Shown here piece by piece: positions 1 through 57,000 of a stretch of 58,516 nucleotides of DNA. The DNA is from an uncultured Bacteroidota bacterium (GTDB taxonomy: Bacteria > Bacteroidota > Bacteroidia > AKYH767-A > JABDAW01): contig CAIWCG010000194.1 in NCBI GenBank assembly GCA_903911135.1, forward strand, positions 1-58,516, written 5' to 3'. The notes beneath the pieces are model-generated. The model did not search any database. It saw only the letters and a list, made by a program, of their open reading frames with translations, and was not told the origin of the DNA. The position numbers and the translations under genes are program-made. Numbering within the stretch: the first letter of the stretch is position 1; each line of letters opens with the position of its first letter.

Positions 1-210
1 GTAACGTTGCAAATCCATTTCTCGAACTCAACGAGGTCATTTGTAACGTTGCAAATCCAATTCTTGAAGTCAACGAGTGCATTTGTAACGTTGCAAATCC
101 AATTCTTGAACTCAACGAGGTCATTTGTAACGTTGCAAACCGTATGCTCGAAGTCAACGAGGTCATTTGCAAGGTTTTTAACGTGCCGATTGCATTTGAT
201 GAGGTATTCA
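1..210. repeat. 42-bp tandem array (array 1), cut by the window edge
   Basis: Units start at 1, 43, 85 and 127, plus a degenerate unit at 169. Consensus is GTAACGTTGCAAATCCAATTCTTGAACTCAACGAGGTCATTT, with an AACGTT palindrome and a CTCG..CGAG inverted repeat. Confidence 0.9.
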
Positions 211-272
211 TCCTGTTAATTTATCGTTCGCCGTGTTAATCTTACCAAAGTTTGAAACTTTGACAAAGCTTA

Positions 273-403
273 TTCGAAGCTACCTGCCATCAAAGCATAG
301 CCCCGATAGTAGCGGCAGCCCGCTGCTTTGTGTCGGTAATGGGGATGCAGCGGCTACAGCGGATAGCGGGACGCAGATGGGACGAGAAGGAACCATAGGC
401 TCC
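273..403 (+). repeat. Conserved GC-rich ~130-nt intergenic element, copy E1 (possible structured RNA or MITE-like repeat)
   Basis: About 85-95% identical by eye to 31881-32011, 35652-35782 and the reverse complement of 35207-35338. Core is TTCGAAGCTACCTGCC..GATAGTAGCGGCAGCCCGCTGC..GCAGCGGCTACAGCGGATAGCGGGACG..ATAGGCTCC. An AT-rich AATTATAAAT tail follows. Confidence 0.85.
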
Positions 404-472
404 CTTAGAAATTATAAATGATGAATTATAAATTATAAATTGAGAGGAGCAGAGGAAATGAAATGGGGCTTA

Positions 473-904
473 TTACAAAGTTGTTGGCTGGTCGTATTCC
501 ATCATGCATCTGCGCCAGAGTTCGGGGATGGGGATGGTGGATTTTTGGCTGTAATCGTAACAGACGAGGGTGGTTTTGCCTGTTGCCATCTCCATTTCGG
601 TTCCGTCGAGCAGCTTTACGAAGCGGTAGGCCATGTCGAAACTTCGGTTTCCGAGGCGGGTGCATTGGGTGTAAACGTAGATGGAATCGCCCAATACGAT
701 GGGGATTTTGTAGTCCATTTCGGCATGGGCAAGTATTAGGCCGGTGAGTGCCCAGTTGATGTTTTCGCCGATGACGGTTTTGAAATAATCTATTCGGGCT
801 TGTTCTATGTAGGTGAAATAATTGGCGTTGTTTACATGGCCCAATGCGTCCATATCTACAAATCTTATGTCGATGAGACATCTATGCCGGAAGGGATTGT
901 TCAT
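473..904 (-). CDS. Acyl-CoA thioesterase, 4HBT/YbgC hotdog family
   Basis: 143 aa. Has the typical N-terminal pattern IRFVDMDALGHVNNANYFTYIEQAR. Confidence 0.85.
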   Translation of the reverse strand: MNNPFRHRCLIDIRFVDMDALGHVNNANYFTYIEQARIDYFKTVIGENINWALTGLILAHAEMDYKIPIVLGDSIYVYTQCTRLGNRSFDMAYRFVKLLDGTEMEMATGKTTLVCYDYSQKSTIPIPELWRRCMMEYDQPTTL

Positions 905-4276: not shown

Positions 4277-4631
4277 TGCTTTTATTTTTTATTAGGCTGT
4301 AAAAATACAATTAATAGTCGAGAGTGGGGGCATCTACCACTTGAAATCATTCATCAAGATAAATAAATCTTAGCCATTTTTGATGATTTTCAAGAGATAA
4401 AAATAAACCTTGGTTGGCATTGTCGATTAATTTTCGTTAATTAGCCTCGATGAAAAACCAACGACTGGCTTTCTTAAACACCAAAAACTCAAATGCGATC
4501 TCTGACAAGGATTTCACTTCCGCTATGGCAGTAAAATCTCTTGCATCATGCGTTTGAGCGGGCCTATATATAACAGTATAGACGGTTTTTTTGGCTGCGC
4601 AATGGAGAGTGGCTCAAAAATAAAGGGCTTT

Positions 4632-4841
4632 GCGGCCGATATAAAGGTCTTAGCGATGATGATAATGGTTATTGCGGCGATGATAATGGGCATTGCGTCC
4701 GATGCTAAGGTTATTGCGTCGAACGCTAAGGTCATTGCGTTGAATGCTAAGGTTATTGCGTCCGACGCTAAGGTTATTGCGTCCGACGCTAAGGTTATAG
4801 CGTCCGACGCTAAGGGCTTAGCGTCGGACGCTATAACCTTT
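4632..4841. repeat. 21-bp tandem array (array 2), 10 units
   Basis: Units begin every 21 bp from 4632. Consensus is GCGTCCGACGCTAAGGTTATT with palindrome GCGTC-C-GACGC. The left three units are degenerate. Confidence 0.9.
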
Positions 4842-10897: not shown

Positions 10898-12199
10898 TTA
10901 TTTCGCGTTTTCCAACATCCACATGGCATCCATTTTAAGCATGGAATCAACCGGAATTTTTCTGCTTTCTGCCTTCTTTACTATTTCATTATACCAACTT
11001 GCCGTATTTCTTATACTGGTAATGATATCATTCAGTTTTTGATTTATTGCTTTTGGTGGCCCATGTGAAATCCCATTATTTTGATGATATAACTTATAGG
11101 CCGCTTCAATAAAGCCCCATCCTAATTGATTGAAACATAGTGGATTTGCCATTATCATCACAATTTGATGCTTTTCTATTTCCTCTTTTAAATCGATATC
11201 ACCTGTTTGCAGAATCGGATTTCCAGGGCAATGCAATTCATGAAAATAATACCAAAATGAATATTTATTAAAAATTAATCCCGCCCTTCCAGTTCCATAA
11301 ATTCCCCAATAAAAACTATCGCCGATGGTCAATACATCCGGTTTTGCTTTGCCTTGGTCTTTGAAAGACATCACTGGATATCCCATTTTAAAGGTATTAA
11401 GGCTCATTAATAGGTTCATTCCTGCAGCAATATCATAATCCGATGATAGGTAATCAAATCCAGTAACGATAGTGTCATATTTGATTGTAGGCATCTCAAT
11501 GTTTCTTAATTTTTCAATGAACTTGACTAAAATTACTGTTGATGTATCACAACCGTAATCGCTCCAATGATGCCCATATTGAGGATATAAAGGATAAGCC
11601 GATTTATGTTTGTTTTCAATGAAATAGGAATTTAAGTCAAGATAAGGGATATCCATTTTTTTTAGGGTATCGCTCATATATTCGTAATTGCTGTTTTTTT
11701 TCTTTTTGCCATATCGGTCTGGAATGAATTCAGGGTAGAAAAAAGCTTTGTTCGGAACAGCCACTACAATAAGGTCAATCCCTCTTCGCTTTAATGAATC
11801 ATGAACATCCTTTAATTGGCCCAGTTGGTCGTTCAATGATTTTTCTTGACATAAATCATCACCAAGGTAGGATTTGATTACTCCCTCTTCATATATATAA
11901 TTATTTTTTCCGATGATCATGCCATTGGCAAGTGCCAAATTATCCACATCGAATGCTATCTGGTTGTTAATCCTGATGAAGATATTTCTTAACCCGAAAT
12001 TATCATTCAAAAACTTTTCTTTTGTCGTTTGGTAAGTTGCGTTCAACCAACCATTCATTGAAAACGAGGTATCTTTGGCATTGACTATTGCGCCTTTCAG
12101 CGGTTTTACTTCAATGAAATTAAACCCTTGCTGAAGCATCGGCAAGAACAAAGCCAATAAAAGTATTCCAAACAGTATTTTCTTCGGATTGTTGTTCAT
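10898..12199 (-). CDS. AlgX/AlgJ-like (DHHW-type, SGNH-like) polysaccharide O-acetylation protein
   Basis: 433 aa. N-terminal TM/signal anchor and a GHHWSDYG motif resembling the DHHW signature. Translationally abutted to the MBOAT gene: its start at 12199 lies directly after the MBOAT stop at 12200. Confidence 0.6.
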   Translation of the reverse strand: MNNNPKKILFGILLLALFLPMLQQGFNFIEVKPLKGAIVNAKDTSFSMNGWLNATYQTTKEKFLNDNFGLRNIFIRINNQIAFDVDNLALANGMIIGKNNYIYEEGVIKSYLGDDLCQEKSLNDQLGQLKDVHDSLKRRGIDLIVVAVPNKAFFYPEFIPDRYGKKKKNSNYEYMSDTLKKMDIPYLDLNSYFIENKHKSAYPLYPQYGHHWSDYGCDTSTVILVKFIEKLRNIEMPTIKYDTIVTGFDYLSSDYDIAAGMNLLMSLNTFKMGYPVMSFKDQGKAKPDVLTIGDSFYWGIYGTGRAGLIFNKYSFWYYFHELHCPGNPILQTGDIDLKEEIEKHQIVMIMANPLCFNQLGWGFIEAAYKLYHQNNGISHGPPKAINQKLNDIITSIRNTASWYNEIVKKAESRKIPVDSMLKMDAMWMLENAK

Positions 12200-13941: not shown

Positions 13942-14118
13942 GTACTTTGAGTTCATGGGCGCGTACTTTGAGTTGCTTGGTACGTACTTTGAGTTGCTTG
14001 GTACGTACTTTGAGTTGCTTGGTGCGTACATTGAGTTCATGGGTACGTACTTTGAGTTGATGGGTAGGTACTTTGAGTTAATGGGCACGTACTTAGGCTT
14101 GCTTGGTGTGTACTTTGC
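13942..14118. repeat. 21-bp tandem array (array 3), about 8.4 units
   Basis: Consensus is GTACTTTGAGTTGCTTGGTAC. Unit junctions create the GTACGTAC palindrome. Lies upstream of the MBOAT operon. Confidence 0.9.
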
Positions 14119-17420: not shown

Positions 17421-17590
17421 AACTTATAAGTAATGTAACATAACTTATAAGTAACTGCCCCTAACTTATAAATAATGTTACTTAACTCATAAGTAACTGC
17501 CACTTACTTGTAAGTAACTGCCATAAATTCATAAATAACTGCCACAAACTTATGAGTAACTGCCATAAACTTGTAAGTAACTGCCATGGA
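17421..17590. repeat. 21-bp tandem array (array 4), about 8 units; degenerate traces reach about 17635
   Basis: Consensus is AACTTATAAGTAACTGCCATA with palindrome ACTTATAAGT. Lies upstream of ppk1. Confidence 0.9.
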
Positions 17591-17799
17591 TAGTATAGTA
17601 ATGTGTAAAGAAGGAATAGTAATTGCCACAAACCGTCTATTTCGGTAATTGAATCGTTTTATCTGATGATTATGACTAAATATTTCATTACGATATGTTC
17701 GATTATTGGCATCAAAAAACAAATCATAAAGACATTAAAAATGCCTTTAATGAAATCAATTATTGATGATGTTTGGAAATGATTTTATCTGAAACCGCA

Positions 17800-22501: not shown

Positions 22502-23746
22502 TTACTCCTTGATTATCTTTCCTCTAACGCTGGTTGGGATTTGCAATCCCGACCCTTTTACCTCATAAAAATAAATGCCACTTCTTAAATGCGAGATATC
22601 TATCGTCTCGGTGGCAGTGTTTAATGCTTGAGAATAAACCTTATTGCCCAACACATCGCTGATGATGATTTGCTGATTTGGGGAATAAGTATCTTGATGG
22701 ATAGTGATGGTGGAGGTGGTGGGGTTGGGGAAAATGGAAATAGTTTCTTTACTATTATTTACTTCACCTATTCCACTTGCTGAATTATAAAAAACCCATG
22801 CTGCTCCAAATCCATTACTATCATTTCTTCCTCCTTCAATAATCGTATGACCATCTGATGAGATTGCAACGCTCCATCCTTGGTATACACCATTACCACT
22901 ATTCACAGCTCCAGTTCCAATCAATTTACTTCCAAGTTGTGTCCAAATATTACTTGTTCTAGTGTAAATCCATACTGCACCAGTATTGCTATTGTCATTC
23001 AATCCACCAACAACTGCTGTATCTCCAGAATATGAAATTGAAACCGTATTACCTTGAGAAGAATTTCCTACAAAACCTGTACCTACCAATTTATTCCCTT
23101 GTTGTGTCCATACTCCTCCTGTTCGAGTATACATCCAAACTGCGCCAATACCACCACCATCCCCTTGCCCACCAATTATTGAAGTATTCCCATCTGAAGA
23201 AATAGCAACTGAATTACCTTGACCACTTCCAGCAGAGCTTGTACCAATAAGTTTATTTCCCTGCTGAGTCCAAACACCACTTGTTCGTGTAAATACCCAT
23301 GCTGCTCCTTCACTGTTATTATCTCCGCTACCACCAGATAGAATTGTATTTCCATCTGATGAAATTGAAATAGATGTACCTTGATGGGCAGCACCAATAG
23401 CACCTGATCCCACTAATTTATTTCCTTGTTGCGTCCAAATGCCACCACTACGAATAAATACCCATACAGCACCCATTCCACTGCTATCGCCCATACCTCC
23501 GACAATAGCTGTATTTCCATCAGCTGAAAGAGATACAGAGTAGCCTTGCCATGCAGAACCAATTGCGCCAGTACCTACTAATTTACTTCCTTGTTGAACC
23601 CAAACTCCAGAAGATCGAATGAAAACCCAAGCGGCACCAGTATAGCTGCTATCACCAAGTCCACCCTTTATCCGCTCCATTTTGCTAAGTGCTGGAAAAT
23701 ATTCTTTAAGGTTAAGGAAAATTTCTTTAAGGTTAAAGTGCTGCAC
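22502..23746 (-). CDS. Repeat-rich T9SS cargo protein, probably 5'-truncated (no signal peptide)
   Basis: About 47-aa repeats (GA.WVF.RSGGVWTQQGNKLVGTGA..QG.SVS.S.DGNT.IVGG.GD) plus a T9SS CTD (ISIFPNPTTSTITI..GIYFYEV). The ORF begins in the middle of a repeat, and its first ~15 codons lie inside array 5. Confidence 0.65.
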   Translation of the reverse strand: MQHFNLKEIFLNLKEYFPALSKMERIKGGLGDSSYTGAAWVFIRSSGVWVQQGSKLVGTGAIGSAWQGYSVSLSADGNTAIVGGMGDSSGMGAVWVFIRSGGIWTQQGNKLVGSGAIGAAHQGTSISISSDGNTILSGGSGDNNSEGAAWVFTRTSGVWTQQGNKLIGTSSAGSGQGNSVAISSDGNTSIIGGQGDGGGIGAVWMYTRTGGVWTQQGNKLVGTGFVGNSSQGNTVSISYSGDTAVVGGLNDNSNTGAVWIYTRTSNIWTQLGSKLIGTGAVNSGNGVYQGWSVAISSDGHTIIEGGRNDSNGFGAAWVFYNSASGIGEVNNSKETISIFPNPTTSTITIHQDTYSPNQQIIISDVLGNKVYSQALNTATETIDISHLRSGIYFYEVKGSGLQIPTSVRGKIIKE

Positions 23747-23894
23747 TTTAACCTTAAGGATTATTTCTTTAAGCCTAATAATTATTCCATTTAGGTTAAG
23801 AAATATTCCATTAAGGTTAGGAATTATTCCAATAAAGTTAAGAATTATTCCAATAAGCCTAAAGAAAATTCCATTAAGACTAAAGAAATATTTC
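23702..23894. repeat. 21-bp tandem array (array 5), about 9 units
   Basis: The right-hand five units are exactly 21 bp (for example ATTAAGGTTAGGAATTATTCC) and contain the palindrome GGAAT-T-ATTCC. Left units are more degenerate. Confidence 0.85.
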
Positions 23895-31299: not shown

Positions 31300-31441
31300 G
31301 AAGCAAATTTATCAAAACATTTAGGAATAATAAAGCCTGCGCCTTGAATAAAATAGGTTGAAATTTCATTTTCAAGCTGTTTTAGCTTAAAAATTCATAA
31401 AAATATGGTTATCCCGTTCGTTTGATGCCCGAAAAAGACGT

Positions 31442-31729
31442 GTTAGGTTTCAACTGTAACGTGACGGTATTGGACTCTGTTGCCACGAACTTGGGTTTCG
31501 TTCGAACGAACTCCAGGTTTGTTGCCAACAGTTGGAGGTTTCAGACCAAGTTAGAGCATTTTGTTGCCTTGGAAACCAGTTTCGTTCGAACGAACTCCGG
31601 CTGTGTTGGAACGAACCCAAAACCTGTCGCGACAATGTTCCAGCGTACGCGACAAACCCCGGCACCGTCGCAACAGAATCCAACTTCGTTCCAACGAAAC
31701 CCAAGTTCGTTGGAACAGAGTTGAACTTC
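31442..31729. repeat. About 21-bp tandem array (array 6), 13-14 units, with overall dyad symmetry
   Basis: Units start with palindromes GTTCGAAC, GTCGCGAC or GTTGCCAAC. The right arm (about 31667-31729) is close to the reverse complement of the left arm (about 31476-31530). Confidence 0.85.
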
Positions 31730-31880
31730 AAGGCAAGGTATTTTGAGGTATTTTAAACGGAATTGGAGCGTATTGAAAGAATTAATGGATTGGTGACGAT
31801 GGGATAATGGCAATTGGCATTTTGTTATTTTTATTGGCATGAGCCTTTTCGCCGCAGCCAGGTATTATTCAAAAAGTTGT

Positions 31881-32011
31881 TTCGAAGCTACCTGCCATCA
31901 AAGCATAGCCCCGATAGCAGCGGCAGCCCGCTGCTTGGTGTCGGTATTGGGGATGCAGCGGCTACAGCGGATAGAGGGACGTAGATGGGACGAGAAGAAA
32001 CCGTAGGCTCC
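31881..32011 (+). repeat. Conserved ~130-nt element, copy E2
   Basis: Same core as E1. The tail is AAAAAATTAGGAATTAGGGATT and abuts the next gene. Confidence 0.85.
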
Positions 32012-32103
32012 AAAAAATTAGGAATTAGGGATTTTTCATGTTTCTTTTAGATGGAAATAGTACCTTTGCAGCCTTAACACGGATTAATAACAACAAAAAA
32101 AAT

Positions 32104-34223: not shown

Positions 34224-35183
34224 ATGACAAACAAGAACTTTTTACTCATAGATACCATACATCCCCTGTTTGTTCAAGGCTTGCTGAAGCTTGGATATAA
34301 CTTGGTGGATGGTACCCTCTGGACGAATGAAAAGGTATTGGATGAGCTTCCTACTTTCACCGGCATATTGGTGAGGAGCAAAATAACTTTGGATGAAAAC
34401 TTCTTCCATAAAGCCACGAATTTGAAATTCATTGCAAGAGCCGGTGCAGGCATCGAGCATATTGACATCAACGAAGCCAAGAAAAGAAACATCCACCTGA
34501 TTACTGCCCCAGAAGGCAACCGAAATGCTGTTGCCGAACATGCGCTTGGCATGCTGCTGAACCTGATGAACAACCTGAACAAGGCCGACCGTGAAATTCG
34601 TGAAGGGAAATGGCTAAGAGAAGACAACAGGGGTACCGAAATTCATGGCAAAACCATCGGCATCATCGGGTTTGGAAACACCGGCCAGAGCTTCGCCAAG
34701 AAATTCATCGGCTTCGAAACGCCAGTCATCGCCTACGACAAATATGTCGAGGTAAATGCCAGCCACGTCACCTCCGTTTCCATGGAGCAGCTCTTCGAAC
34801 AGGCCGACATCGTCAGTTTCCACATCCCCCTCACCACGGAAACGAATGATCTCGTCAACGATGAATTCTTGAGTTCATTCAAGAAAAATAGCTACCTCAT
34901 CAACACCTCCAGAGGCAAGATTCTGAACACAAAAGCCCTCGTCAAGCATATGAAATCAGGCAAGATTCTTGGTGCAGCCCTCGATGTAATCGAATACGAA
35001 AACCAAAGTTTCGAGTCGCAAGCCAGCATAGCCGACCAAGAAACCTACGGCTATCTGCTGGCCAGTCCACGCGTACTCCTCACGCCACACATAGCAGGAT
35101 GGACGCACGAATCCTATCGTTTAATAGCCGAAGTGCTCCTCGAAAAAATCGCCAACCTTGCCCTCCCTCCCCTCCCTCCCTAA
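34224..35183 (+). CDS. D-isomer-specific 2-hydroxyacid dehydrogenase (phosphoglycerate dehydrogenase-like)
   Basis: 319 aa. NAD motif GIIGFGNTGQ and catalytic region LTPHIAGWT. Confidence 0.9.
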   Translation: MTNKNFLLIDTIHPLFVQGLLKLGYNLVDGTLWTNEKVLDELPTFTGILVRSKITLDENFFHKATNLKFIARAGAGIEHIDINEAKKRNIHLITAPEGNRNAVAEHALGMLLNLMNNLNKADREIREGKWLREDNRGTEIHGKTIGIIGFGNTGQSFAKKFIGFETPVIAYDKYVEVNASHVTSVSMEQLFEQADIVSFHIPLTTETNDLVNDEFLSSFKKNSYLINTSRGKILNTKALVKHMKSGKILGAALDVIEYENQSFESQASIADQETYGYLLASPRVLLTPHIAGWTHESYRLIAEVLLEKIANLALPPLPP

Positions 35184-35206
35184 TTTCTAATTCCTAATTC
35201 TTTTAA

Positions 35207-35338
35207 GGAGCCTATATCCTCCACACGTATCAAGGTGCGTCCCGCTATCCGCTGTAGCCGCTGCCTGCCCATTTCCGACACAAAGCAGCGGGCTGCCGCT
35301 ACTATCGGGGCTATGCTCTGACGGCAGGTAGCTTCGAA
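35207..35338 (-). repeat. Conserved ~130-nt element, copy E4 (inverted orientation)
   Basis: Its reverse complement matches the E1-E3 core. The segment between GGGACG and ATAGGCTCC is replaced. The tail is AATTAGGAATTAGAAATTA. Confidence 0.85.
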
Positions 35339-35420
35339 ACAACTTTTGGCAAAACGGACCATTTTCAAGGTGAAATTCTTTCATGCCGTTTAAAAAACAC
35401 TTATTTCCGGTTTCCGACCT

Positions 35421-35614
35421 ATATGACGGACGATGCGGCTTATATCACGGACGATGCGGATGATATGACGGACGATGCGGATGATATGACGGACGATGCG
35501 GATGATAGTACGGACGATGCGGATGATAGTGCGGACGATGCGGATGATAGCACGGACGATGCGGATGATAGCACGGACGATGCGGCTTATATCACGGATG
35601 ATCCGTCTTATAGG
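35421..35614. repeat. 21-bp tandem array (array 7), about 9 units
   Basis: Consensus is TATGACGGACGATGCGGATGA. The first and last units carry GCGGCTTATATCACGG variants. The last unit has the palindrome CGGAT-G-ATCCG. Confidence 0.9.
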
Positions 35615-35651
35615 TAGAAACGACTGTTTTTTAATTTCGGCTGAAAGTTTA

Positions 35652-35782
35652 TTCGAAGCTACCTGCCGTCAAAGCATAGCCCCGATAGTAGCGGCAGCCC
35701 GCTGCTTTGTTTCGGAAATGAGGAGGCAGCGGCTACAGCGGATAGCGGGACGAAGATGGGACGAGAGGAGGATATAGGCTCC
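35652..35782 (+). repeat. Conserved ~130-nt element, copy E3
   Basis: Same core as E1, with the same AATTATAAAT-type tail. Confidence 0.85.
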
Positions 35783-35840
35783 ATTTAGAAATTATAAATT
35801 ATGGATTATAAATTATGAATGGGGGAGGACGAGGAGGGAT

Positions 35841-36710
35841 TTAGTTGACGTCGAGCAAAAAACACTCTCTGAATTTGCTCATGCCTCCCCATTCTTCGAA
35901 TAGTTTTGAGGTGATGGCGTTGATTTCTTCGATGGTCTTGGGCTTGCGGTCGCCGCTTTTTGGGAAAACGAAATAGATGATGCCGTCGGCTGCACCGCCT
36001 TTTTTGATGTCGGAATTTACGCCCAAGGCATTTGCCAAGGCTATCGAGCCTTCGCCGATTTTGTCGATGGAGGAGATGTCGGCAAAGATGGCGTTGATGA
36101 ATCGGTGGTTCTTTTTGTTGTAAATCATGCCCATGTCGCCTACGGTTATGTCGGCGGCATTGATGACTTCCGGCGGCAATACGAAGTATGGAATCTTCTC
36201 CGAATTGACATATCGGCGTGGGTTCTTTATGTCGAAAGTTTTGTCTATGAGGCTGGTGGTGGAGACGAAATATCCTGGGGCGGGGTCCTTTTCGTTTTGC
36301 AGAACCGGGTTGCCATCGGCCATGTTGTTGTCCGTCACCACCCCGAACCAATTGCCCGGTTTGCCTGCATTTTTATTGTTGTCGAGTCCTGTGTTCATTG
36401 GATGAAAGGCATGTGGCGAACCATCGGCATCTATCTTCATTCCGGTCTCAAAATATACGACGTTGGTGGTATTGAATTTTATTACCGGCACTGCCTGTAC
36501 CCGAAGCAGTTCGGTGTTGTCGCATGGGTTGTTGCTGACTTTCTTGTATGGGGTAAGGTTGGCTTTTGCAATCCTGTTGGCATTGTCGTCGCTCAAGAAA
36601 TTGCATCCTGTCAGCCATAATATGGTGGAAAGGAAAAACACTTTTCCTATGCCTTTCAAGCAGTTGTGGATAGTTGTATTGCTGATTTTTTCCATTCCTT
36701 TAATAAACAA
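35841..36710 (-). CDS. Lipoprotein, possibly glycoside hydrolase family 75 (chitosanase)-like
   Basis: 289 aa. Lipobox LWLTGC. KIDADGSPHAFHP, YFVLP and GDMGMIYN..FADIS..GEGSIALANALG resemble GH75 from memory only. Confidence 0.5.
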   Translation of the reverse strand: MFIKGMEKISNTTIHNCLKGIGKVFFLSTILWLTGCNFLSDDNANRIAKANLTPYKKVSNNPCDNTELLRVQAVPVIKFNTTNVVYFETGMKIDADGSPHAFHPMNTGLDNNKNAGKPGNWFGVVTDNNMADGNPVLQNEKDPAPGYFVSTTSLIDKTFDIKNPRRYVNSEKIPYFVLPPEVINAADITVGDMGMIYNKKNHRFINAIFADISSIDKIGEGSIALANALGVNSDIKKGGAADGIIYFVFPKSGDRKPKTIEEINAITSKLFEEWGGMSKFRECFLLDVN

Positions 36711-38508: not shown

Positions 38509-39258
38509 CTAATAATAATAAAAAGCATTCGGCGCTCGCTTATAAAGCGGCAATATCCAGCCAAAGGTAACCCCATAAAGAATATCAAACCGCTTGGTAT
38601 TATCCTTAAGCCCCGTTTCAAAGTTCACAGGACGGCGATTTTCGGTAAAACCCTCCAGTATTTCAAACCCGATATAGAAATTCATCAGATGCCTGTTCCC
38701 AAGATGCATGTAACCCACCGATTGAGACAACGCAAGCCCATTCGTCATCCTGTCATAACCCGCCGCATAGACACCATCCACCTGCGGAACATTCTTGTTC
38801 TCATCATAAATGGAAATCTTATGCTCCAAAAAGCCCACACCACCCAACACATAAATCCCACTGTTCGGGTTCGGACCCATAACCGGAAACAGCTTGCCAA
38901 AATCCACCATCACATCAAACCCACGCTCATACAATATCACATTGCCATACTGCCCATTATCACCAAGCAGGTTTCCATCAGGCGTAGTGATGTTGCTCAT
39001 GATGCCCACCTCCCTCACATCATTCCCAAACAGATAAGAACCACGTATGCCGAAGAGATAATTCCCCTTCGTCTTAAACCGATAGCCGATACCCACCTCC
39101 GAATTCCACCCAAACCTATCCGCCATGTTCCCACCAGGAAAATCAGCACTATAATGCACCGAAACCAACGACATCCGCAGCGAAGAATCACGAATGCTCC
39201 CCTGCCCAAAACTAACATTCAGCCACAACAGCAACCCGACAACAAAAATTTTACGCAT
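38509..39258 (-). CDS. Outer-membrane beta-barrel hypothetical protein
   Basis: I trimmed the track ORF to the ATG at 39258 (MRKIFVVGLLLWLNVSFGQG signal peptide). The longer version would run antisense through tRNA-Cys. Aromatic C-terminus ..NAFYYY. Confidence 0.7.
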   Translation of the reverse strand: MRKIFVVGLLLWLNVSFGQGSIRDSSLRMSLVSVHYSADFPGGNMADRFGWNSEVGIGYRFKTKGNYLFGIRGSYLFGNDVREVGIMSNITTPDGNLLGDNGQYGNVILYERGFDVMVDFGKLFPVMGPNPNSGIYVLGGVGFLEHKISIYDENKNVPQVDGVYAAGYDRMTNGLALSQSVGYMHLGNRHLMNFYIGFEILEGFTENRRPVNFETGLKDNTKRFDILYGVTFGWILPLYKRAPNAFYYY

Positions 39259-39419
39259 ACCACTCATCATCTTAAAAATAATCAAAACCATAACGAACCC
39301 AAGCCACAAATGTTTTTTACCACCCCCCACCACCATCAAAATTCTCCGCCACAAAAGTAGCGAAAAACCCATGCAGCATAAAATTACCCCCAAATTTTTC
39401 CCTTTCAAAAATAAATTAT

Positions 39420-39427
39420 TACTTTTG
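39420..39427 (+). promoter_or_regulatory. Bacteroidota -7 promoter box (TAnnTTTG) for tRNA-Cys
   Basis: TACTTTTG ends 18 nt before the tRNA 5' end. Confidence 0.4.
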
Positions 39428-39445
39428 CGCCCCTTGCTCATGTAA

Positions 39446-39516
39446 GGTCGCGTGGCCGAGCGGCTAGGCAGAGGTCTGCAAAACCTCGTACAGCAGTTCG
39501 AATCTGCTCGCGACCT
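39446..39516 (+). tRNA. tRNA-Cys (GCA)
   Basis: Hand-folded cloverleaf. Acceptor stem GGTCGCG/CGCGACC; anticodon stem GAGGT/ACCTC with loop CTGCAAA (anticodon at 39478-39480); T-arm AGCAG-TTCGAAT-CTGCT. CCA is not encoded. Confidence 0.9.
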
Positions 39517-39550
39517 CGAAAATTGTTTCAGTCGGAGACATTTCGAGTAC

Positions 39551-39580
39551 ACAAAGCCCCCTACATTCAGGGGGCTTTGT
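39551..39580. terminator. Stem-loop, probable terminator between tRNA-Cys and the convergent SDR gene
   Basis: ACAAAGCCCCC-TACATTCA-GGGGGCTTTGT. The T-tract is weak. Confidence 0.5.
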
Positions 39581-44427: not shown

Positions 44428-44500
44428 TGCAAAGATACACATTAAACCCCACTTCTCTAATGCCGGAAAACCGGTGACAAGATGGGGTGTTAATGGAATT
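44428..44500 (-). repeat. Cassette-junction repeat R2
   Basis: TGCAAAGATACACATTAAACCCCACTTCTCTAATGCCGGAAAACCGGTGACAAGATGGGGTGTTAATGG. It overlaps the HEPN stop codon. On the minus strand it supplies TATCTTTG 15 nt before the next ATG. Confidence 0.85.
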
Positions 44501-44897
44501 CAGATGTAATGTTCATTTTCTTATGAACAAAATCTCTTATGTTTTTTGCAATTAGTATGGCATTGTTCGTTTCTGCCTCCGTTAATTCAATGGTAGTTTC
44601 AGGGTATCTGATTTCAACTGCATAATCTGCGAGTTCCATAATGCTGACAATCATGATTTCGTCTATTGATTCTTTGGCATTTATAAGTTCCAGCAGATAA
44701 ACCAAATCATGAGTTCTTCTAAACTCCACTTTCAAATAGATAAGATAGGCCTTTAAGTATTTTTCGACTGCCTGCTGGCAGTGAAATGCCGTTACATGAC
44801 GGTATTCTGGGATATGCATTTGTATAACCAATGCAGTACCCAAATCTTCATCTCCTTTCTCCACCCATTTCCTTATGATATCCATTTTATCGTTCAT
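44490..44897 (-). CDS. HEPN domain toxin (HepT-like)
   Basis: 135 aa. R-x4-H motif in EFRRTHDLVYL. Overlaps the upstream MNT gene by 11 nt. Confidence 0.8.
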   Translation of the reverse strand: MNDKMDIIRKWVEKGDEDLGTALVIQMHIPEYRHVTAFHCQQAVEKYLKAYLIYLKVEFRRTHDLVYLLELINAKESIDEIMIVSIMELADYAVEIRYPETTIELTEAETNNAILIAKNIRDFVHKKMNITSEFH

Positions 44898-45201
44898 ATA
44901 AAGTAGTACAGTTTTTCATTGCAGACGATAAGAATGAATAAGGATTCAGCAAGTCATCATTAAATTCTGATGGGGTATAAACCTTTAAGTCCATTGGTAC
45001 AAAAGAACCGAATAAATATTTTCTTACCTCCCGACCGCGACTTTGTTTTGGAAGGTCGGTATCCTTAATCACAATCAAATCCAAATCACTGTCCTCATTA
45101 GGAGTTCCATTGGCATAAGAACCAAATAAAATCACCTTTTCAGGCGCATAATTCTGAACTATCTTATTGACAATTTCAGTGATTTTTTCCTTTTTAATCA
45201 T
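44887..45201 (-). CDS. Minimal nucleotidyltransferase antitoxin (MntA-like)
   Basis: 104 aa. Motif LFGSYANGTPNEDSDLDLIV (GS..DxD). Confidence 0.8.
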   Translation of the reverse strand: MIKKEKITEIVNKIVQNYAPEKVILFGSYANGTPNEDSDLDLIVIKDTDLPKQSRGREVRKYLFGSFVPMDLKVYTPSEFNDDLLNPYSFLSSAMKNCTTLYER

Positions 45202-48450: not shown

Positions 48451-48522
48451 TGTGTTTATTTTTATTATTGTTTCTCATTTTGTTAATCCCTTTTTATGCT
48501 TGATTATGCCTTTTTGACAAAG

Positions 48523-48761
48523 TTTGAAGGAATCTTTACATTCCTTCAAACAATGTCAACATTGTTTGAAGAAGTCCTTACATTCCTTCAAGGTATGTGA
48601 ACATTGTTTGAAGAAGTCCTTGCATTCCTTCAAGGTATGTAAACATTGTTTGAAGAAGTCCTTGCATTCCTTCAAGGTATGTAAACATTGTTTGAAGAAG
48701 TCTTGACATTCCTTCAAACAATGTCAACATAGTTTGAAGATATCCTTACATCCCTTCAAAG
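48523..48761. repeat. 42-bp tandem array (array 8), about 5.7 units
   Basis: Units start at 48523, 48565, 48607, 48649, 48691 and 48733. TTGAAG..CTTCAA and AAACA-T-TGTTT inverted repeats. The terminal units differ from the three inner units. Confidence 0.9.
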
Positions 48762-48781
48762 TTTCGTCTTTTAGCTAATTT

Positions 48782-50564: not shown

Positions 50565-51041
50565 ACGGCAAAGATAGATAATGACCAATTATTTAACAGG
50601 TATTCAGTATTTATGAGGAAGGAAATCAGTAATGGATAGATAAATGTACCCATTTGTGGCATATTCAAGATATTCTTTGTTTGTGATAGACATTTAAAGC
50701 TTAATGTCATCATGGATAATGATTTCCGATTTGGAATCTCAAACAGCAAATTATTTAACCTAATAAAGGATTTATCGCTCCTTAATTTCATCGAGTCACC
50801 GATGGCAAAAATCCATTATTAGCAAAGCTTTCAATGTTGCTTCTTAGTTCAGGGAATGTTAAATGTTTGCATAATCCCAATAAAAATGAAGAAAACATGA
50901 AAAACATGACGTGGGTCATAGGAGTGCAGTAGTCATCCCATTAATATTGCAACCTTAATACCAAGAACCAAAACAACATATCAACTTAAAGGGGAAGCTG
51001 AAAACCGCATAGAGTAAGCAACAATTAAACAACATAAAAAC

Positions 51042-54000
51042 ATGGAAACTACCATTTACTCAACGTCAAACAAAGGTGTAACAAGGTCTTTGATGATTAC
51101 GATGACCTTCGTACTTTTACTGTTCAGCGCCAACCAAAGTGCTGCCTGGACGCAAACGTATCAGATTTCGTCGTCAAATCAATTGCTTTATTGCTATTCC
51201 AATTGCGGACCTGATTCCTATTACGGAGCATCAGAAGGAGGCGATATAGGCTTTACCTGGAATGACAATCTGGGGTTTGGAGTGAATATCAGTTCCATAA
51301 CCATTCGATTTAGAGTAGGTATGGAGTGCAATTGGGGAGATAAAAGCACCACGATGAATGGCAATTATGCAGGCATGTTTTCTACTACAGATAATTGCGA
51401 TTGTTCGCTTTCCATAGATCCAATCTTTACCCTTAACCCAAATCCGGGTGATTATGTAATAGGGGGTGCCAATACTTTTTTAGTAACCAACCTTCAAAAT
51501 AACTTTGGCTTTTTTATGGATAATGATACGCTTGGCGGTTATGCAATGATAACGGTTGAATATACTCAATCGCCATTCATCTCCAGCTATTCTACAAACA
51601 GTGCCTGTATTGGAAACAACATCATTATTCATGGTACAGGTTTGGCAAATGTCAATTCGGTAATGTTTTTTGATAATGTAGCAGCAACTATCCTATCCAC
51701 CGATGCAACAAGCGTTATAGTAGAAGTTCCATCGGGTGCTACCTCCGGTCCCATCACTGTTTCTAATCCTGACGGAAATTATGTAGGAGGTGATTTCTAC
51801 ATCAATGGAACGGCACCAATAATAACCTGTCCTAACGGGCAGGTACTTTATTCAGGTCAAAACGATTGCCAAGTTGAAGCAACATTCGATGGAATGACCT
51901 CAGATGGAGTGGTAACCTATATTTATAATTCCAATTACATCAGTTCTCCATATTTCTTTCCCATTGGGCAAAATATGGTAGAAATGAATGTGATGACGGG
52001 CAATTGTAATATTGCATGCTTTTTCAATATCTCCGTTCTCGATACCGTTCTTCCAATACTGACACCCTGCCCATCCGATGTGGTGCAGGCATGTGCAGGA
52101 ATCATTTCTTATGAGACGCCCACTGCTACAGATAATTGTTCGATTAGCATGGCAGCAAGTGTTACTTATGCCTATACCGGAACACAACAATCTTGGACCG
52201 TGCCTCAAGGATTAACCAATATTCAGGTTGACCTTAGCGGTGCTCAAGGAGGAGGTACACAGTTTGGCAGCGATGGCGGAGCAGGCGGACGAGTAACCGC
52301 TACACTACCAGTAAATGGAGGGCAGATACTATATATATATGTAGGTGGAGCGCCAACGGATAATTCCGGTGGATATAATGGCGGAGGCGGTTGTTATGGA
52401 AACGGATATTCAGGTTCTGGAGGTGGAGCCTCAGACATCAGATTCGATAGTCCTGATTTAGGCAATAGAAGGATTGTTGCCGGTGGTGGAGGTGGATCAG
52501 GAGCAAATTGTAATTCATCGGACGAATGGGGTGGAGCTGGTGGTGATTTAATAGGTCAGACTGGTTACCAATGTGGCGGTAATTGTTGTTACACTGGCAC
52601 AGGAGGAACTCAATATTCAGGAGGTTATGACCAATATGGTTATGGTGCTTCAGGAGCATTTGGTAATGGAGGAAATGGTATTTGGGATGGCGGCGGCGGC
52701 GGTGGTGGTTTTTATGGTGGTGGTGGTGGAAGCTACGGCGGTGGCGGTGGCGGTAGCAGCTATACCGATCCATCTGCAATGAATGTTGTCCACACACAAG
52801 ACTATCAGGTTGGTAATGGTTATGTTATCATAAATTATAATCAAGCCTATCCTACCGTTACCCAAACATCCGGCTTGCCATCAGGTTCCTTCTTCCAAGC
52901 TAATGTAACGACCAATACTTTTGTAGCATCCGATCAATCAGGTAACACGGTTGCATGTTCTTTTAATGTAACAATAGATGATATTACTCCTCCAGTTATT
53001 GCTGGTTGTCCTGACGATATATATTTAGCATGCCCTGGTGTTGTTGATTATTTCCCACCAACAGCATCTGATGATTGCGATTCGGTTTTAGTTTATCAAG
53101 CGGGAGGTTTGGCTCCAGGCTCTAATTTTGTAAATGGAGCAACTATCAATACTTTTATTGCAATGGATGCCACTGGCAACACATCACAATGCTCATTTAC
53201 GGTAACAGTAAGTGACTATACCCCTCCTGTAATATTTGATTGCCCAGGTGATGTTGTTTCCTCTTGTCCAACAACTGTAGATTTTAATCCTCCAACAGCT
53301 TCAGATGATTGCAATGATGTAAATATCCAACAAACAATAGGATATGGTTCAGGTTATTATTACACAAGTGGGGTTTCTGTTAATACCTTTGTGGCAATAG
53401 ACGGATCTGGGAATACTGCTGAATGTACCTTCACGGTTACAATATCAGATGTCGATGCTCCTGAATTTACAAGTTGCCCGACCGACATTACCATGGCTTG
53501 TCCCGATGTAGTTTCGTATGATATCCCAACAGCTACCGATGCATGCATCTATTTAACAATAGTGCAAACTTCCGGACTTGTTTCTGGTTCTTTCTTCCCA
53601 AATGGAATCACAACAAATACCTTCCAAGCTACTGATGGATCAGGAAACACATCAGTTTGTACTTTTAATGTTTCCATTGATGATTCCACTCCTCCAGAAA
53701 TTGCAGGCTGTCCAGCCGATACTGTTATGTCATGCCCAGGAATCATTAATTTCAATATGCCAACAGTGTCAGACAATTGTACCTCTTCTGCAAACGGAAG
53801 CATAACATTTTCCTATACTGGAATAATTGAGAACTGGATGGTTCCTAATGGTGTTCCTACAGTAACAATTACAGCGCTCGGAGCCCAAGGAGGTCAGAGC
53901 AGCGGAGGTTCAGGAGGATTAGGTGCAAGTATGACAGGTATGGTTTCGGTTACTTCAGGTGAATCATTAAAAATCTTGGTTGGCCATCAGGGCTATTACG

Positions 54001-57000
54001 GAACACAAGGTGGTGGTGGTGGTGGTTCTTTCGTGACAGATAACAGTAATAACCCATTGGTAATTGCCGGTGGTGGTGGTGGTGGATATAATGGAGGAAG
54101 TTCCAGTTATTCAGCAAATGCAAATGGATCAATTTATACACAAGGAAATTCTGGTGTTTATGGAAGTGGAAATACTTATGGGGGAGCAGGTGGAACAAAC
54201 GGTGGTGGCGGAAATTGCTCCCCTCAATTTGGGAGTTCAGAAGGATCTGGTGGTGGTGGACTTATTGGCAACGGTTCAAATTGTTATGGGACAACAGGCG
54301 GGTACTCTTTTGTAAATGGTGGTGCTGGAGGTTCAGGAAATGGAAGTGGAGGAGGCGGAGGATTTGGTGGCGGTGGCGGTGGCGATTGGTATTATTGGAC
54401 AGGTGGTGGCGGTGGCGGTGGTTATTCTGGTGGTGGTGGTGGCACGTACTATGGTGTTGGTGGCGGAGGCGGATCATTTAATGCTGGCACCAACCAAACC
54501 AATAATGCAGGTGTAAATCCCGGCAATGGTTTGGTAATAATTTCATGGAATAATACATATCCAATGATTTCACAAACATCTGGATCACCTTCAGGTACCT
54601 TTATTGTAGCAAATACAACAAATACTTTTACGGCAATAGATGGCTCTGGCAATACATCTATTTGTTCATTTAATATAACTGTTAATGATAACACACCTCC
54701 TGTATTCGCTAATTGTCCTGCCGATATTATTTTATCTTGTCCTGGTAATGTGGATTATATTACTCCAACAGCTACCGATGATTGTGCCATTGTTAATGTG
54801 GAACAAACTGCTGGTTTGCCAACAGGATCATATTTTGCAAATGGAGTTATGATCAATACTTTTTTAGCAACCGATGCAGCTGGCAATACGTCTGTTTGTA
54901 CTTTTTCAGTAACGGTGAGTGATTACACTCCACCAGTAATTTCAAATTGTCCAACAGATTATGTTTTATCATGCCCTGGAGTAGTTGAATATACCACTCC
55001 AACAGCGTCTGATGACTGCATTATTGTTAATATTGAACAAACAGTAGGTTTGCCTACAGGTTCTTTTTTCCCAAATGGGGTTACTATAAATACGTTTGTT
55101 GCAACAGATGGATCGGATAATACTTCTGAATGTTCATTTTCTGTATCTATCAATGATAATGTCCCTCCCGTAATTGCTAATTGCCCAATAGATTCTGTTA
55201 TGTCATGTCCAGGAATAGTTAATTTCAATATTCCAACTGTGTCAGATAATTGTTCTTCAAATATAAATGGCAGCATTACTTTTAACTATTCAGGTTCAAT
55301 CGTAAGCTGGATTGTACCTACAGGAGTAACATCTGTTTCAGTATTGGCATTAGGTGGTCAAGGGGGTAGTGCAAGCGGAGGAGTTGGTGGATATGGTGCA
55401 AGTATTATTGGAACTTTTAATGTAACGCCTTCGGATAATATTCAAATACTTGTAGGACAACAAGGTGGAAACAACGTCGTGAATCAATATTATCGTGGTG
55501 GTGGTGGCGGAGGGGGCAGTTTTGTTTATAATTCTTCTTCTTCCACTCTGATGTTAGCAGCAGGTGGTGGTGGTGGTGCCGGACAATATGGATATGGAAG
55601 TTCTGTCAATTCTGATGCATCAATAACAACTAATGGAAAGTCTGGATATAATGGTGGCTTTGGCGGTTCATCTGGTAATGGAGGTGGAGCATCTTCTTAT
55701 GGTAGCGGCGGAGCTGGTTGGAATTCTAATGGTAACAATAGCGGTTACTCAACAGGAGGTTCAAGGTTTCATGGTGGTGGATCAGGTGGAAACGGGTATT
55801 CTGATGGTGCCAATGGTGGCTTTGGCGGCGGTGGTGGTTCTTATGCTGGTGCTGGTGGCGGAGGTGGCTATTCAGGTGGCGGAGGCGGTGGATGGTCTTA
55901 TTCAGGTTACGGAGGCGGAGGCGGTTCTTATAATGGAGGAACAAATCCTATAAACACTGTAGGAGTCAATAGTGGAAATGGTTTGGTTGTTATTTCATGG
56001 AGTAATGTTTTTCCTAATATAACACAAACTTCTGGATTGGCATCAGGTTCATACTTTGCAAATGGAATTACAACGAATACATTCATTGCAGAAGACGGAT
56101 CAGGTAATACAGCGTCTTGTTCTTTTATAATAACAGTGAACGATGTAACTCCTCCTGAACTTTTCAATTGCCCATCTGATATTTCTGTTTCCTGCCCTGG
56201 AATAATAATATTTGGTTCACCAATAGCGAATGATGATTGTGGCGTTGCTACTGTCGAGCAAATTATTGGGTTAGTATCAGGAACTATTTTCCCTTCTGGA
56301 ACAACTGAAGTTATGTTTAGAGCAACTGATGGATCAAACAATACTAGTACTTGTTCATTTAATGTAATTGTAGATGTTGATAATACCCCACCAACTATTG
56401 TTGGTTGCCCATCAGATCTAACAGTTAATTGTTCAAATATTGTTTCATTCGTTCCGCCAACAGTTACAGATAATTGTAACAATATTTCTTTGTCTGGAGG
56501 AAGTCAAACCTTTAATTATACAGGCACAATACAACACTTTACTGTTCCAGCAGGAGTTACATCAGTTAATCTTGATGCTTTTGGTGCCCAAGGGGTTGCA
56601 GTAGGCATGTATTCAGGAAATGGTGGAGAAGCAAAAGGTACAATGGCCGTTATTCCTGGACAGGTTTTGAATGTATTTGTGGGAGGACAAAATTTATTTA
56701 ATGGAGGTGGAACAGGTTATCATGGTGCAAATGGAGGTGATGCAACCGATATCAGATATCCTTCAACATCTATGAATGACAGAGTAATAGTTGCTGGCGG
56801 CGGCGGCGGAGCTGGTGGAGATAATTGGATATGTCAAAGTGGGGTAGATGGAAGTGGTGGTGGCGGAATTGCTGTGGGGCAAAATTTTGTCGGAGGATCT
56901 GGAGGTAGAGGTTATGCATTTTGTGGAACATCTGGAGGCACGAATGGTGGCACATCAGGCAATTCCTATCATGGTGGTGGTGCAGGTGGCGGTGGGCTAA

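Follow-up and report, generated by a model that had tools for sequence, protein, structure and literature searches.

Long-form Flavo-1 repeats at the ends of 21-bp tandem arrays in an uncultured Bacteroidota lineage

The stretch of DNA analysed here (58,516 nt, hereafter the window) is an entire contig, CAIWCG010000194.1, of a Bacteroidota metagenome-assembled genome (MAG), and carries four copies, E1 to E4, of a conserved GC-rich intergenic repeat. These repeats are long-form members of Flavo-1, a dispersed non-coding repeat of Bacteroidota, and a tandem array of 21- or 42-bp period lies 5′ of each of them, the tail side being free of arrays. The element is not a new structured RNA, its family being already known; the new part lies in its extended anatomy and in its polar coupling to the arrays. 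Taking structure, placement and published transcription data together, Flavo-1 may tentatively be viewed (probability roughly 0.45) as a cis-acting, strand-specific hairpin that resembles repetitive extragenic palindromic (REP) sequences and bacterial interspersed mosaic elements (BIMEs) and would be expressed by read-through.

Flavo-1 copies and the arrays beside them

Comparison with the Rfam model of Flavo-1 (RF01705, 76 nt, gathering score 42 bits) places three of the four copies above the gathering score (Table 1). E2 falls 0.2 bits below it because of one C-to-A change, which lies in AGCGGG and breaks one basal pair; the copy at the same site in contig L001, a close relative with 97% amino acid identity in the dehydrogenase, keeps the C. 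In the model alignments the window copies match the conserved Flavo-1 nucleotides UAGCC-CCGAU.G.AGCGG ... AGCGGA.AGCGGGA, and host and habit agree as well, with four intergenic copies in 58.5 kb of a Bacteroidota MAG. A preliminary description of the window, made from the sequence alone, had proposed a structured RNA or a mobile repeat and had itself held that a clear hit to a described RNA family would remove the novelty; since the copies belong to the curated Flavo-1 family, the element itself is no longer novel. Its placement of four conserved GC-rich copies is borne out by alignment, in which blocks of ~139 nt share a nearly identical core, and by a 15-mer count: the window has exactly 4 occurrences of AGCGGATAGCGGGAC at ≤3 mismatches, whereas shuffles average 0.58 and none of 100 reaches 4. 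No fifth copy is found in the 58.5-kb window at permissive Rfam thresholds. The copies have 58-60% G+C, compared with 34-47% in their 150-nt flanks and 41% in the window as a whole. An exact 32-mer of the window subfamily has no match among GTDB representative genomes, and the lineage is thus not represented among them.

The window contains eight intergenic tandem arrays with a period of 21 or 42 bp, called by Tandem Repeats Finder (TRF) and by printing the sequence in rows of 21. Each has a different unit, most units contain a near-palindrome of 10-18 nt, and together the arrays make up ~3% of the window, at a density of about one every 7 kb. They are not CRISPR arrays, as the 21/42-bp units stand head to tail with no spacers. 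The array beside E2 is 99% conserved in L001 and has dyad symmetry, with 52-nt arms (31474-31525 and 31670-31721) that are 81% complementary, and the array beside E1 may continue past the start of the window. An adjoining array had been noted for three of the four copies; the link holds, and the count has to be raised, since all four copies adjoin an array on the 5′ side. E3 and E4 form a 109-nt inverted repeat, 94% complementary, whose halves lie 297 nt apart with an array between them.

This polarity is not confined to the window. A scan of Joint Genome Institute (JGI) metagenomes with a subfamily-specific pattern recovered 18 contigs, representing ~13 independent loci that have no genes in common with the window, and the copies tested among them all score 42-55 bits against the Flavo-1 model. 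On 18 of 18 contigs a 21/42-bp array lies 5′ of every copy, with no array on the tail side; the arrays usually lie within 50-450 nt of Flavo-1, comprise 3-17 units and have a unit of their own at each locus. Altogether 16 of 16 independent loci show the same polarity, for which the probability by chance is <1e-12 at a background of 0.15; with arrays occupying ~3% of the window, such consistency is far beyond chance. Five metagenome loci have Flavo-1 at both ends of the array, like E3-array-E4 in the window: L113, L116, L118 (the same locus as L126) and L124 read as minus-strand Flavo-1, array and plus-strand Flavo-1, and L120 additionally has two open reading frames (ORFs) between the copies. 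The full layout runs gene, tail, Flavo-1, optional GC hairpin, array, optional GC hairpin, Flavo-1, tail, gene.

The GC hairpin, GGCGAAAAGGC-nnn-GCCTTTTCGCC, lies between array and Flavo-1 in eight loci. Its paralogous copies differ by compensatory changes in the outer stem (GCTTC/GAAGC, GCTAC/GTAGC, GTTGC/GCAAC and GCTGC/GCAGC). In the window only a 3′ half of it remains.

The association invites the hypothesis that Flavo-1 and the covarying GC hairpin are recognition ends at which a host or mobile enzyme creates, expands, bounds or reads the 21-bp arrays, the whole being one functional locus of a new kind. Its appeal lies in the completeness of association and polarity (~16/16 independent loci), in the symmetric pair formed by the end pieces, and in a period that is conserved though every unit sequence differs. 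Array length also varies within one species: the array between E3 and E4 has 8.7 units in the window and 6.7 in the same-species contig L003, which was compared with L004 and the window for array length and whose intergenic region is 42 bp shorter. Against this, five of the eight window arrays have no Flavo-1 copy, a relative with a 66% identical dehydrogenase (L130) has two arrays (2331-2477 and 11909-12092) in 13 kb that contain no Flavo-1, the element is plentiful in genomes without such arrays, with none beside the copies of ~100 other Flavo-1 genomes, and no candidate enzyme was found. The arrays are a trait of the lineage that does not depend on Flavo-1, and a role of the element in making or reading them is improbable, even if it would finally give Flavo-1 a function. 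L130 was also considered as an empty-site comparison and set aside, as gene order is not conserved.

Literature searches returned no relevant description of 21-bp palindromic intergenic arrays in Bacteroidota. Neither these searches nor the accessible parts of the Flavo-1 literature mention a link between the element and such arrays, and to that extent the polar pairing has not been described before and is new.

Table 1. Flavo-1 copies, tandem arrays and GC hairpins. Coordinates refer to the window unless a contig is named.
Feature	Coordinates	Strand	Description and basis
E1, long-form Flavo-1	265..403	+	5′ leader AAAGCTTATTCGAAGCTACCTGCCATCAAAGCA, hairpin core, 3′ spacer, GCTCC box 399-403; four-copy alignment
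E1 core	295..377	+	Rfam match, 52.5 bits; minimum-free-energy fold is the family hairpin, -26.5 kcal/mol
E1 tail	404..460	+	AT-rich 7-nt repeats (ATTATAA-type), then purine-rich run
E2, long-form Flavo-1	31873..32011	+	Alignment; 41.8 bits
E2 tail	32012..32035	+	AATTAGG repeats; sequence
E3, long-form Flavo-1	35207..35346	-	Rfam core 35234-35316, 51.9 bits; Rfam, alignment
E3 tail	35160..35206	-	AATTAGG and GGGAGG repeats; overlaps 3′ end of dehydrogenase gene 34224-35183(+)
E4, long-form Flavo-1	35644..35782	+	Rfam core 35674-35756, 55.1 bits; Rfam, alignment
E4 tail	35783..35840	+	ATTATAA-type 7-nt repeats, then GGGGGAGGACGAGGAGGG run; abuts 3′ end of convergent gene 35841-36710(-)
All window arrays	1-176, 4620-4833, 13942-14117, 17421-17601, 23697-23892, ~31440-31740, 35421-35602, 48522-48762		TRF, rows of 21
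42-bp (2 x 21) array 5′ of E1	1..176		4.2 units, 96 bp from E1; TRF, rows of 21
Degenerate 21-bp-period array 5′ of E2	31440..31740		~140 bp from E2; rows of 21, missed by TRF
21-bp array between E3 and E4	35421..35602		8.7 units, ATATCACGGACGATGCGGATG; between divergent E3 (82 bp) and E4 (49 bp)
GC hairpin, 3′ half only	31843..31859	+	GCCTTTTCGCCGCAGCC; next to E2, sole window remnant
GC hairpin loci	L112, L118, L121, L124-L127, L129; e.g. L118 810-834, 1144-1168		Sequence

Folded structure and extended anatomy

The Flavo-1 core is a hairpin of ~75 nt. In its lower half, Watson-Crick steps alternate with conserved purine-purine mismatches in the order CCCG/CGGG, A.G, UA/UA, GNA.GGA and GC/GC: the first and second AGCGG pair with each other through their GC, the third contributes the CGGG that pairs with CCCG, and the purine-rich stretches between the pairs oppose each other as mismatches. 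The tip is a covarying stem of variable length. Among 61 members from many genera, 8 of the 15 predicted pairs keep pairing despite changes on both sides, as exemplified by a pair left free by the search pattern, which is AU in 29 members, UA in 21, GC in 8 and CG in 1. All four 75-nt window cores likewise adopt the family hairpin at minimum free energy (-24.6 to -31.4 kcal/mol).

Folding is asymmetric between the strands. The family sample comprised 112 Flavo-1 copies from ~100 genomes, recovered by a consensus pattern, and some counts use 100-113 copies. The annotated strand folds better than its complement for 96 versus 17 whole hairpins (n=113) and for 74 versus 26 variable tips; the hairpin is thus under selection on the annotated strand, as RNA or as single-stranded DNA.

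These results both support and correct the earlier structural proposal. A structured-RNA-type element is indeed present, the family being curated and supported by covariation, though the structure that was put forward is not the conserved one. The AGCGG-CAGC-CCGCT hairpin sequence and the triple AGCGG occur as written; the local 6-bp AGCGG/CCGCU hairpin, with its alternative AGCGG pairings, is specific to the window subfamily and absent from other Flavo-1 members, existing because the variable stem of the subfamily begins CAGCCCGCUGC. An alternative RNAalifold structure of 20 subfamily copies that includes this hairpin was rejected, with compensatory changes at 0 of 29 pairs. The change of a closing pair from T.G to C-G, noted earlier, concerns a site that, family-wide, is unpaired and varies freely. 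Pairing of the 5′ leader with the 3′ spacer, and self-folding of the spacer, were rejected, with z-scores of ~0.

The anatomy goes on beyond the 76-nt Rfam model. A conserved leader of ~33 nt precedes the TAGCC that opens the hairpin; on the 3′ side follow a box of the form C, about 26-28 nt and GCTCC, and an AT-rich tail of 7-nt repeats. Extended anatomy is found family-wide: in the short form (64/112 copies) GCTYC and an A-rich run come ≤12 nt after the hairpin, and in the long form (~40/112) they are preceded by C and a spacer of ~28 nt; the window copies (GGGAC-N26-GGCTCC) belong to the latter. Alignment confirms that the segment between GGGACG and ATAGGCTCC is variable. A 5′ motif, cTTnTGAAAAC, is common to many copies and may correspond to TTCGAAGC in those of the window. 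The tails of all four window copies consist of 7-nt direct repeats of the ATTATAA or AATTAGG type followed by GGGAGG-like runs. They had been paired as E1 with E3 and E2 with E4; the actual pairing is E1 with E4 (ATTATAAAT repeats) and E2 with E3 (AATTAGG repeats).

A palindromic motif, ACTTTGTCAAAG / CTTTGACAAAGT, is found just upstream of Flavo-1 in distant genera, often as a hairpin with a 12-bp stem. Its sites include window positions 257-268, upstream of E1, and loci L024, L039, L102, L105 and others of Chryseobacterium and Flavobacterium; with two mismatches it also occurs at the edge of the array at 48522-48762, and it is not enriched across the window.

Genomic placement, transcription and mobility

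Many Flavo-1 copies occupy old sites. About 45 of 109 are at orthologous positions in other species or genera, among them a copy between purM and purN in four Chryseobacterium species, a copy ~690 nt upstream of the 16S rRNA gene in nine Flavobacterium species (L013, L016, L042, L046, L061, L077, L078, L093 and L107), a copy upstream of lysS in three Flavobacterium loci and a copy at the pheS 3′ end in one Flavobacteriaceae locus (L009) and in Flavobacterium psychrophilum. The copies upstream of the rRNA (rrn) operon point away from 16S and stand between the operon and thrS. All four window sites are occupied in every related-strain contig that covers them.

Placement is oriented with respect to genes. 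The tail side is the side closer to genes, at a median distance of 45 nt, and of the four window copies, three point toward the 3′ end of a gene: the E1 tail stops ~13 nt short of the stop codon of a convergent thioesterase gene (473-904, minus strand), and the last codons of the dehydrogenase (…ANLALPPLPP*, 35160-35183) are the purine-rich E3 tail read on the opposite strand. The dehydrogenase of a close relative has 321 amino acids and a different C-terminus, and the E3 repeat appears to have reshaped the end of this gene. In gaps between co-directional genes, 36 copies are antisense and 14 sense (p = 0.003; own sample, crude ORF calls), and in F. psychrophilum antisense copies number 5 and sense copies at most 1.

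No signals of its own were recognised in the element. No -7 box of the Bacteroidetes type is found at a fixed distance upstream in 104 copies, a criterion that covers TAnnTTTG only; boxes of this kind are placed beyond the element, on one side or the other, and point away from it. In the window, a TAccTTTG box read from the sequence at 32061-32068, belonging to the downstream lipoprotein gene, comes after the E2 tail and is therefore outside the element. Terminators consisting of a hairpin and a U-tract are not enriched downstream, where the 3′ flank is A-rich, not U-rich. The idea that Flavo-1 supplies the A-tract side of intrinsic terminators was rejected, as a downstream hairpin is found in 14 of 100 copies and at the same rate upstream.

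Published transcription data are available for F. psychrophilum, a fish pathogen whose genome has 128 Flavo-1 copies according to an array study. Thirteen consecutive Flavo-1 features of its Table S3 were sampled: five are situated between co-directional genes (all antisense), five between divergent and two between convergent genes, and one (0005) is unclassified by position. The signal of the Flavo-1 strand is at background (3.9-6.6 overall, 3.9-6 in broth) for copies antisense within operons (0001, 0006 and 0011) and for those upstream of the promoter of a neighbour (0002, 0007 and 0008), and features 0008 and 0011 stay at background on nutrient-poor agar too. Copies in 3′ untranslated regions (UTRs) give a signal equal to or above that of their gene, feature 0009 reaching 10.5 where the upstream gene has 7.9. 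This dependence on context fits read-through expression of a very stable stem-loop, though cross-hybridisation among copies may contribute.

The same data bear on the type that Rfam assigns, an independent small RNA (sRNA) gene with its own promoter, which in the window lineage would be transcribed outward from the array and would serve as a trans-acting RNA or a protein sponge. Strong covariation accords with such a gene, as do strand-specific folding, conserved purine-rich loops that may resemble a protein-binding RNA motif and the orientation of both module copies, by which transcription leaving the array yields the annotated strand. In F. psychrophilum the signal of many copies rises on nutrient-poor agar and clusters with that of tRNAs, and a preprint lists Flavo-1 among unannotated Leptospira transcripts. 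Opposed to this are the lack of a fixed-distance -7 box in the 104 copies and of a U-tract terminator, and the background signal of copies that are antisense in operons or lie beyond transcription units; according to the authors of the F. psychrophilum study, the matches follow no pattern, being sense, antisense or outside transcribed regions, and 128 copies per genome with divergent tips would be unusual for a trans-acting RNA. An sRNA gene is accordingly rather unlikely.

A cis-regulatory leader, i.e. a riboswitch or attenuator for the downstream gene, could be suspected from sense-oriented copies upstream of genes such as lysS and metG. Aminoacyl-tRNA synthetase genes (pheS, thrS, lysS and metG) account for 8 of the 172 proteins flanking Flavo-1 in loci L006-L111 (~100 genomes), representing ~4 independent loci, and metG, pheS, alaS and valS of F. 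psychrophilum likewise adjoin copies; moreover, the alaS, valS and ftsY 5′ UTRs of that species overlap Flavo-1 matches. Yet these three 5′ UTRs carry the reverse complement of Flavo-1, orientation to neighbours is mixed, promoters usually lie downstream of the element (in L129 a thiamine pyrophosphate (TPP) riboswitch also stands between Flavo-1 and the gene), three of the four window copies face gene 3′ ends, and Weinberg et al. 2010 (PMC2864571) rated the motif as not cis-regulatory. Orientation and promoter position largely refute a leader, which is extremely improbable. The synthetase enrichment is real; as orientation to these genes is inconsistent, it is left out of the proposed mechanism.

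Mobility requires separate consideration, since the preliminary description had also raised a transposable element of the miniature inverted-repeat type (MITE) or a REPIN-like repeat, a view that the ends of the element do not support. In the four-copy alignment leader and tail are unrelated, without terminal inverted repeats. No general target-site duplication exists, the direct-repeat scores of the flanks being 15.6 compared with 14.2 in shuffles, with 8 of 109 copies beating every shuffle. Nor is there a transposase beside the window copies, between the inverted pairs of L048 and L091, or among the tested ORFs of metagenome loci, and neither a transposase nor a Y1 protein of the REP-associated tyrosine transposase (RAYT) type is among the families listed for the rest of the window. 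The genes between the inverted pairs of L048 and L091 are ordinary ones, and no Pfam family matches the inner ORFs of L120. A REPIN is a close inverted doublet forming a single long hairpin; E3 and E4 do not have this geometry, given the distance and the array between them.

A still-moving non-autonomous element, MITE-like or mobilised by an enzyme of the IS200/IS605 or RAYT type, may nevertheless be envisaged, with TAGCC and GCTCC as transposase recognition or cleavage sites and a preference for hairpin-forming DNA that would explain the array modules. Flavo-1 copies are numerous and intergenic and occur in both orientations, and a conserved motif at the 5′ foot of the hairpin is matched by a 3′ box at one of two set distances. 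Such flanking motifs at set distances recall the substrate ends of HUH transposases, as a likeness only. In some long forms the 5′ flank recurs in the 3′ spacer (the 8 of 109 copies that exceed every shuffle); substitutions cluster in the element, tails differ between close strains, assemblies break at copies (that of L001 ends inside the E3 tail), and placement and orientation beside the arrays of the window lineage are stereotyped. Besides the missing inverted repeats and general target duplications and the lack of a transposase at the loci searched, many positions are orthologous across species and genera, the four window sites are filled wherever related-strain contigs cover them, only 2 matches were found in 2.9 million viral contigs, and orientation is not linked to GC skew. 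Continued movement is thus unlikely. Three related ideas were tried and rejected: carriage by phages, in view of the 2 viral matches; orientation tied to the replication strand, as the mean GC skew on the element strand is ~0; and hairpin-targeted insertion across the general family, as the flanks are only weakly structured (z about -0.6).

Differences between close strains give another indication of how copies change. Between the window and L001, 8 of ~20 differences in the 810-nt intergenic region of E2 fall within the 139-nt element while the array is nearly unchanged, and the E3 tail has a different type of 7-nt repeat in the two. The concentration of substitutions in E2 and the switch of the E3 tail suggest that copies exchange sequence with one another.

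Comparison with known systems and implications

The definition of Flavo-1 goes back to Weinberg et al. 2010 (PMC2864571), who rated it a likely RNA with covariation and a variable stem and assigned no function. Its conserved nucleotides, its hairpin and its multicopy, intergenic occurrence in Bacteroidota are those of the window copies; the family also extends to a few Spirochaetes. To this description the window copies add the 5′ leader, the 3′ C-N26-GCTCC box, the tail of 7-nt repeats and the placement at array ends.

Flavo-1 bears a likeness to the REP and BIME repeats of enterobacteria and pseudomonads, which are likewise extragenic hairpin repeats with ~100 copies per genome, located between genes and in 3′ UTRs in both orientations, expressed (as Flavo-1 would be) by read-through alone, found in mosaic loci with other motifs and maintaining their stems between paralogous copies. 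The two are not homologous: REP is a palindrome of 20-40 nt, whereas Flavo-1 is a 75-nt hairpin with conserved purine-rich internal loops, and REP families are species- or genus-specific, whereas Flavo-1 is conserved across a whole phylum. The GTAG/CGTC tag of REP sequences (Di Nocera et al., PMC3733652) is not part of Flavo-1, whose 5′ motif is TAGCC, although the reverse complement of GGGACG gives CGTC in some long forms only. The CGTC-tagged REPs of Bacteroidetes and Spirochaetes described in the same study have stems of 8-9 bp and are a different element.

MITEs and IS200/IS605 ends are also short, non-coding and repeated, with a hairpin and flanking motifs at set distances; Flavo-1 differs in having neither terminal inverted repeats, target duplications nor a related autonomous element, and in its many old, fixed copies. 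An integron attC site, too, is an imperfect hairpin: its base is conserved, some conserved bases stay unpaired, its tip varies, and it is the folded single strand that is read. The Flavo-1 hairpin is similar, but it is accompanied by no integrase, cassette array or R/L box consensus, and its copies lie among housekeeping genes. Intergenic 7-nt direct repeats such as TAACTGA are known from Beggiatoaceae, Cyanobacteria and some Bacteroidetes (MacGregor 2015, PMC4679880). Like the Flavo-1 tails and the 21-bp (3 x 7) arrays, they are 7-nt-based tandem repeats in intergenic DNA near gene ends; their unit sequences differ, and the window arrays have 21/42-bp units with near-palindromes and are capped by Flavo-1.

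The covarying strand-specific hairpin, fixed polarity, absence of own signals, persistence of sites and position at array ends together lead us to infer a cis element that works like the REP/BIME elements of E. coli. Its mode of action may be sketched as follows. A host protein would probably recognise the folded single strand through the purine-rich (G.A-rich) loops. Having neither promoter nor terminator of its own, a copy would depend entirely on read-through from a neighbouring transcript to be transcribed, and it would sit at the edge of a transcription unit with its tail end toward the adjacent gene. Once transcribed, it would form a very stable stem-loop that protects the RNA end or acts as a barrier, not a regulator in trans. 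Copies would persist for long periods at the same sites and exchange sequence by recombination, and in the window lineage they may mark or insulate the boundary that separates array from flanking genes.

Several observations weigh against this proposal. Nutrient-poor agar lifts the Flavo-1-strand signal in F. psychrophilum to 9-13, even for some antisense copies, and the signal clusters with those of tRNAs; this rise could reflect either a genuine RNA whose expression is regulated or cross-hybridisation among the copies. A 683-nt transcribed region that has feature 0005 near its 5′ end extends to the next gene with its signal level unchanged, hence Flavo-1 is not an efficient terminator. The antisense bias in co-directional gaps drops to 16 versus 7 (p = 0.09) when orthologous duplicates are removed, and depends on crude ORF calls. 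Features that define REP are lacking, namely a short unit, the GTAG tag and, at the loci searched, a RAYT gene. Finally, the terms "boundary" and "insulator" are taken from geometry.

Some other features of the window may be recorded. A weak match to the DUF805b RNA motif lies at 50988-51020 (28.4 bits, gathering score 35.6), and the motif exceeds its threshold, at 45.2 bits, at 1554-1589 of the related metagenome contig L120. Tandem repeats of the GGTGGTGG type occur at 52694-52750, 54365-54443 and 55827-55931, with no long ORF listed between ~50.6 and 58.5 kb; this region may be a large glycine-rich gene running off the contig end. Adjacent small genes at ~44490-45201, with a HEPN and a nucleotidyltransferase domain by gene calls on the identical contig L003, are likely a toxin-antitoxin pair. 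A tRNA gene (58.2 bits, 39446-39516, plus strand) lies inside the listed minus-strand ORF 38509-39552, which casts doubt on the 5′ end of this ORF call.

Flavo-1 is listed among the most abundant small-RNA families of Rfam (PMC9029176). The absence of an own promoter or terminator, the strand-specific fold, the stable sites and the tail-toward-gene polarity narrow the possibilities for what it does. On the practical side, metagenome assemblies break at copies and arrays, and gene calling yields spurious ORFs across both. The window lineage, in which the element always caps a 21-bp array, offers a natural system for studying Flavo-1.

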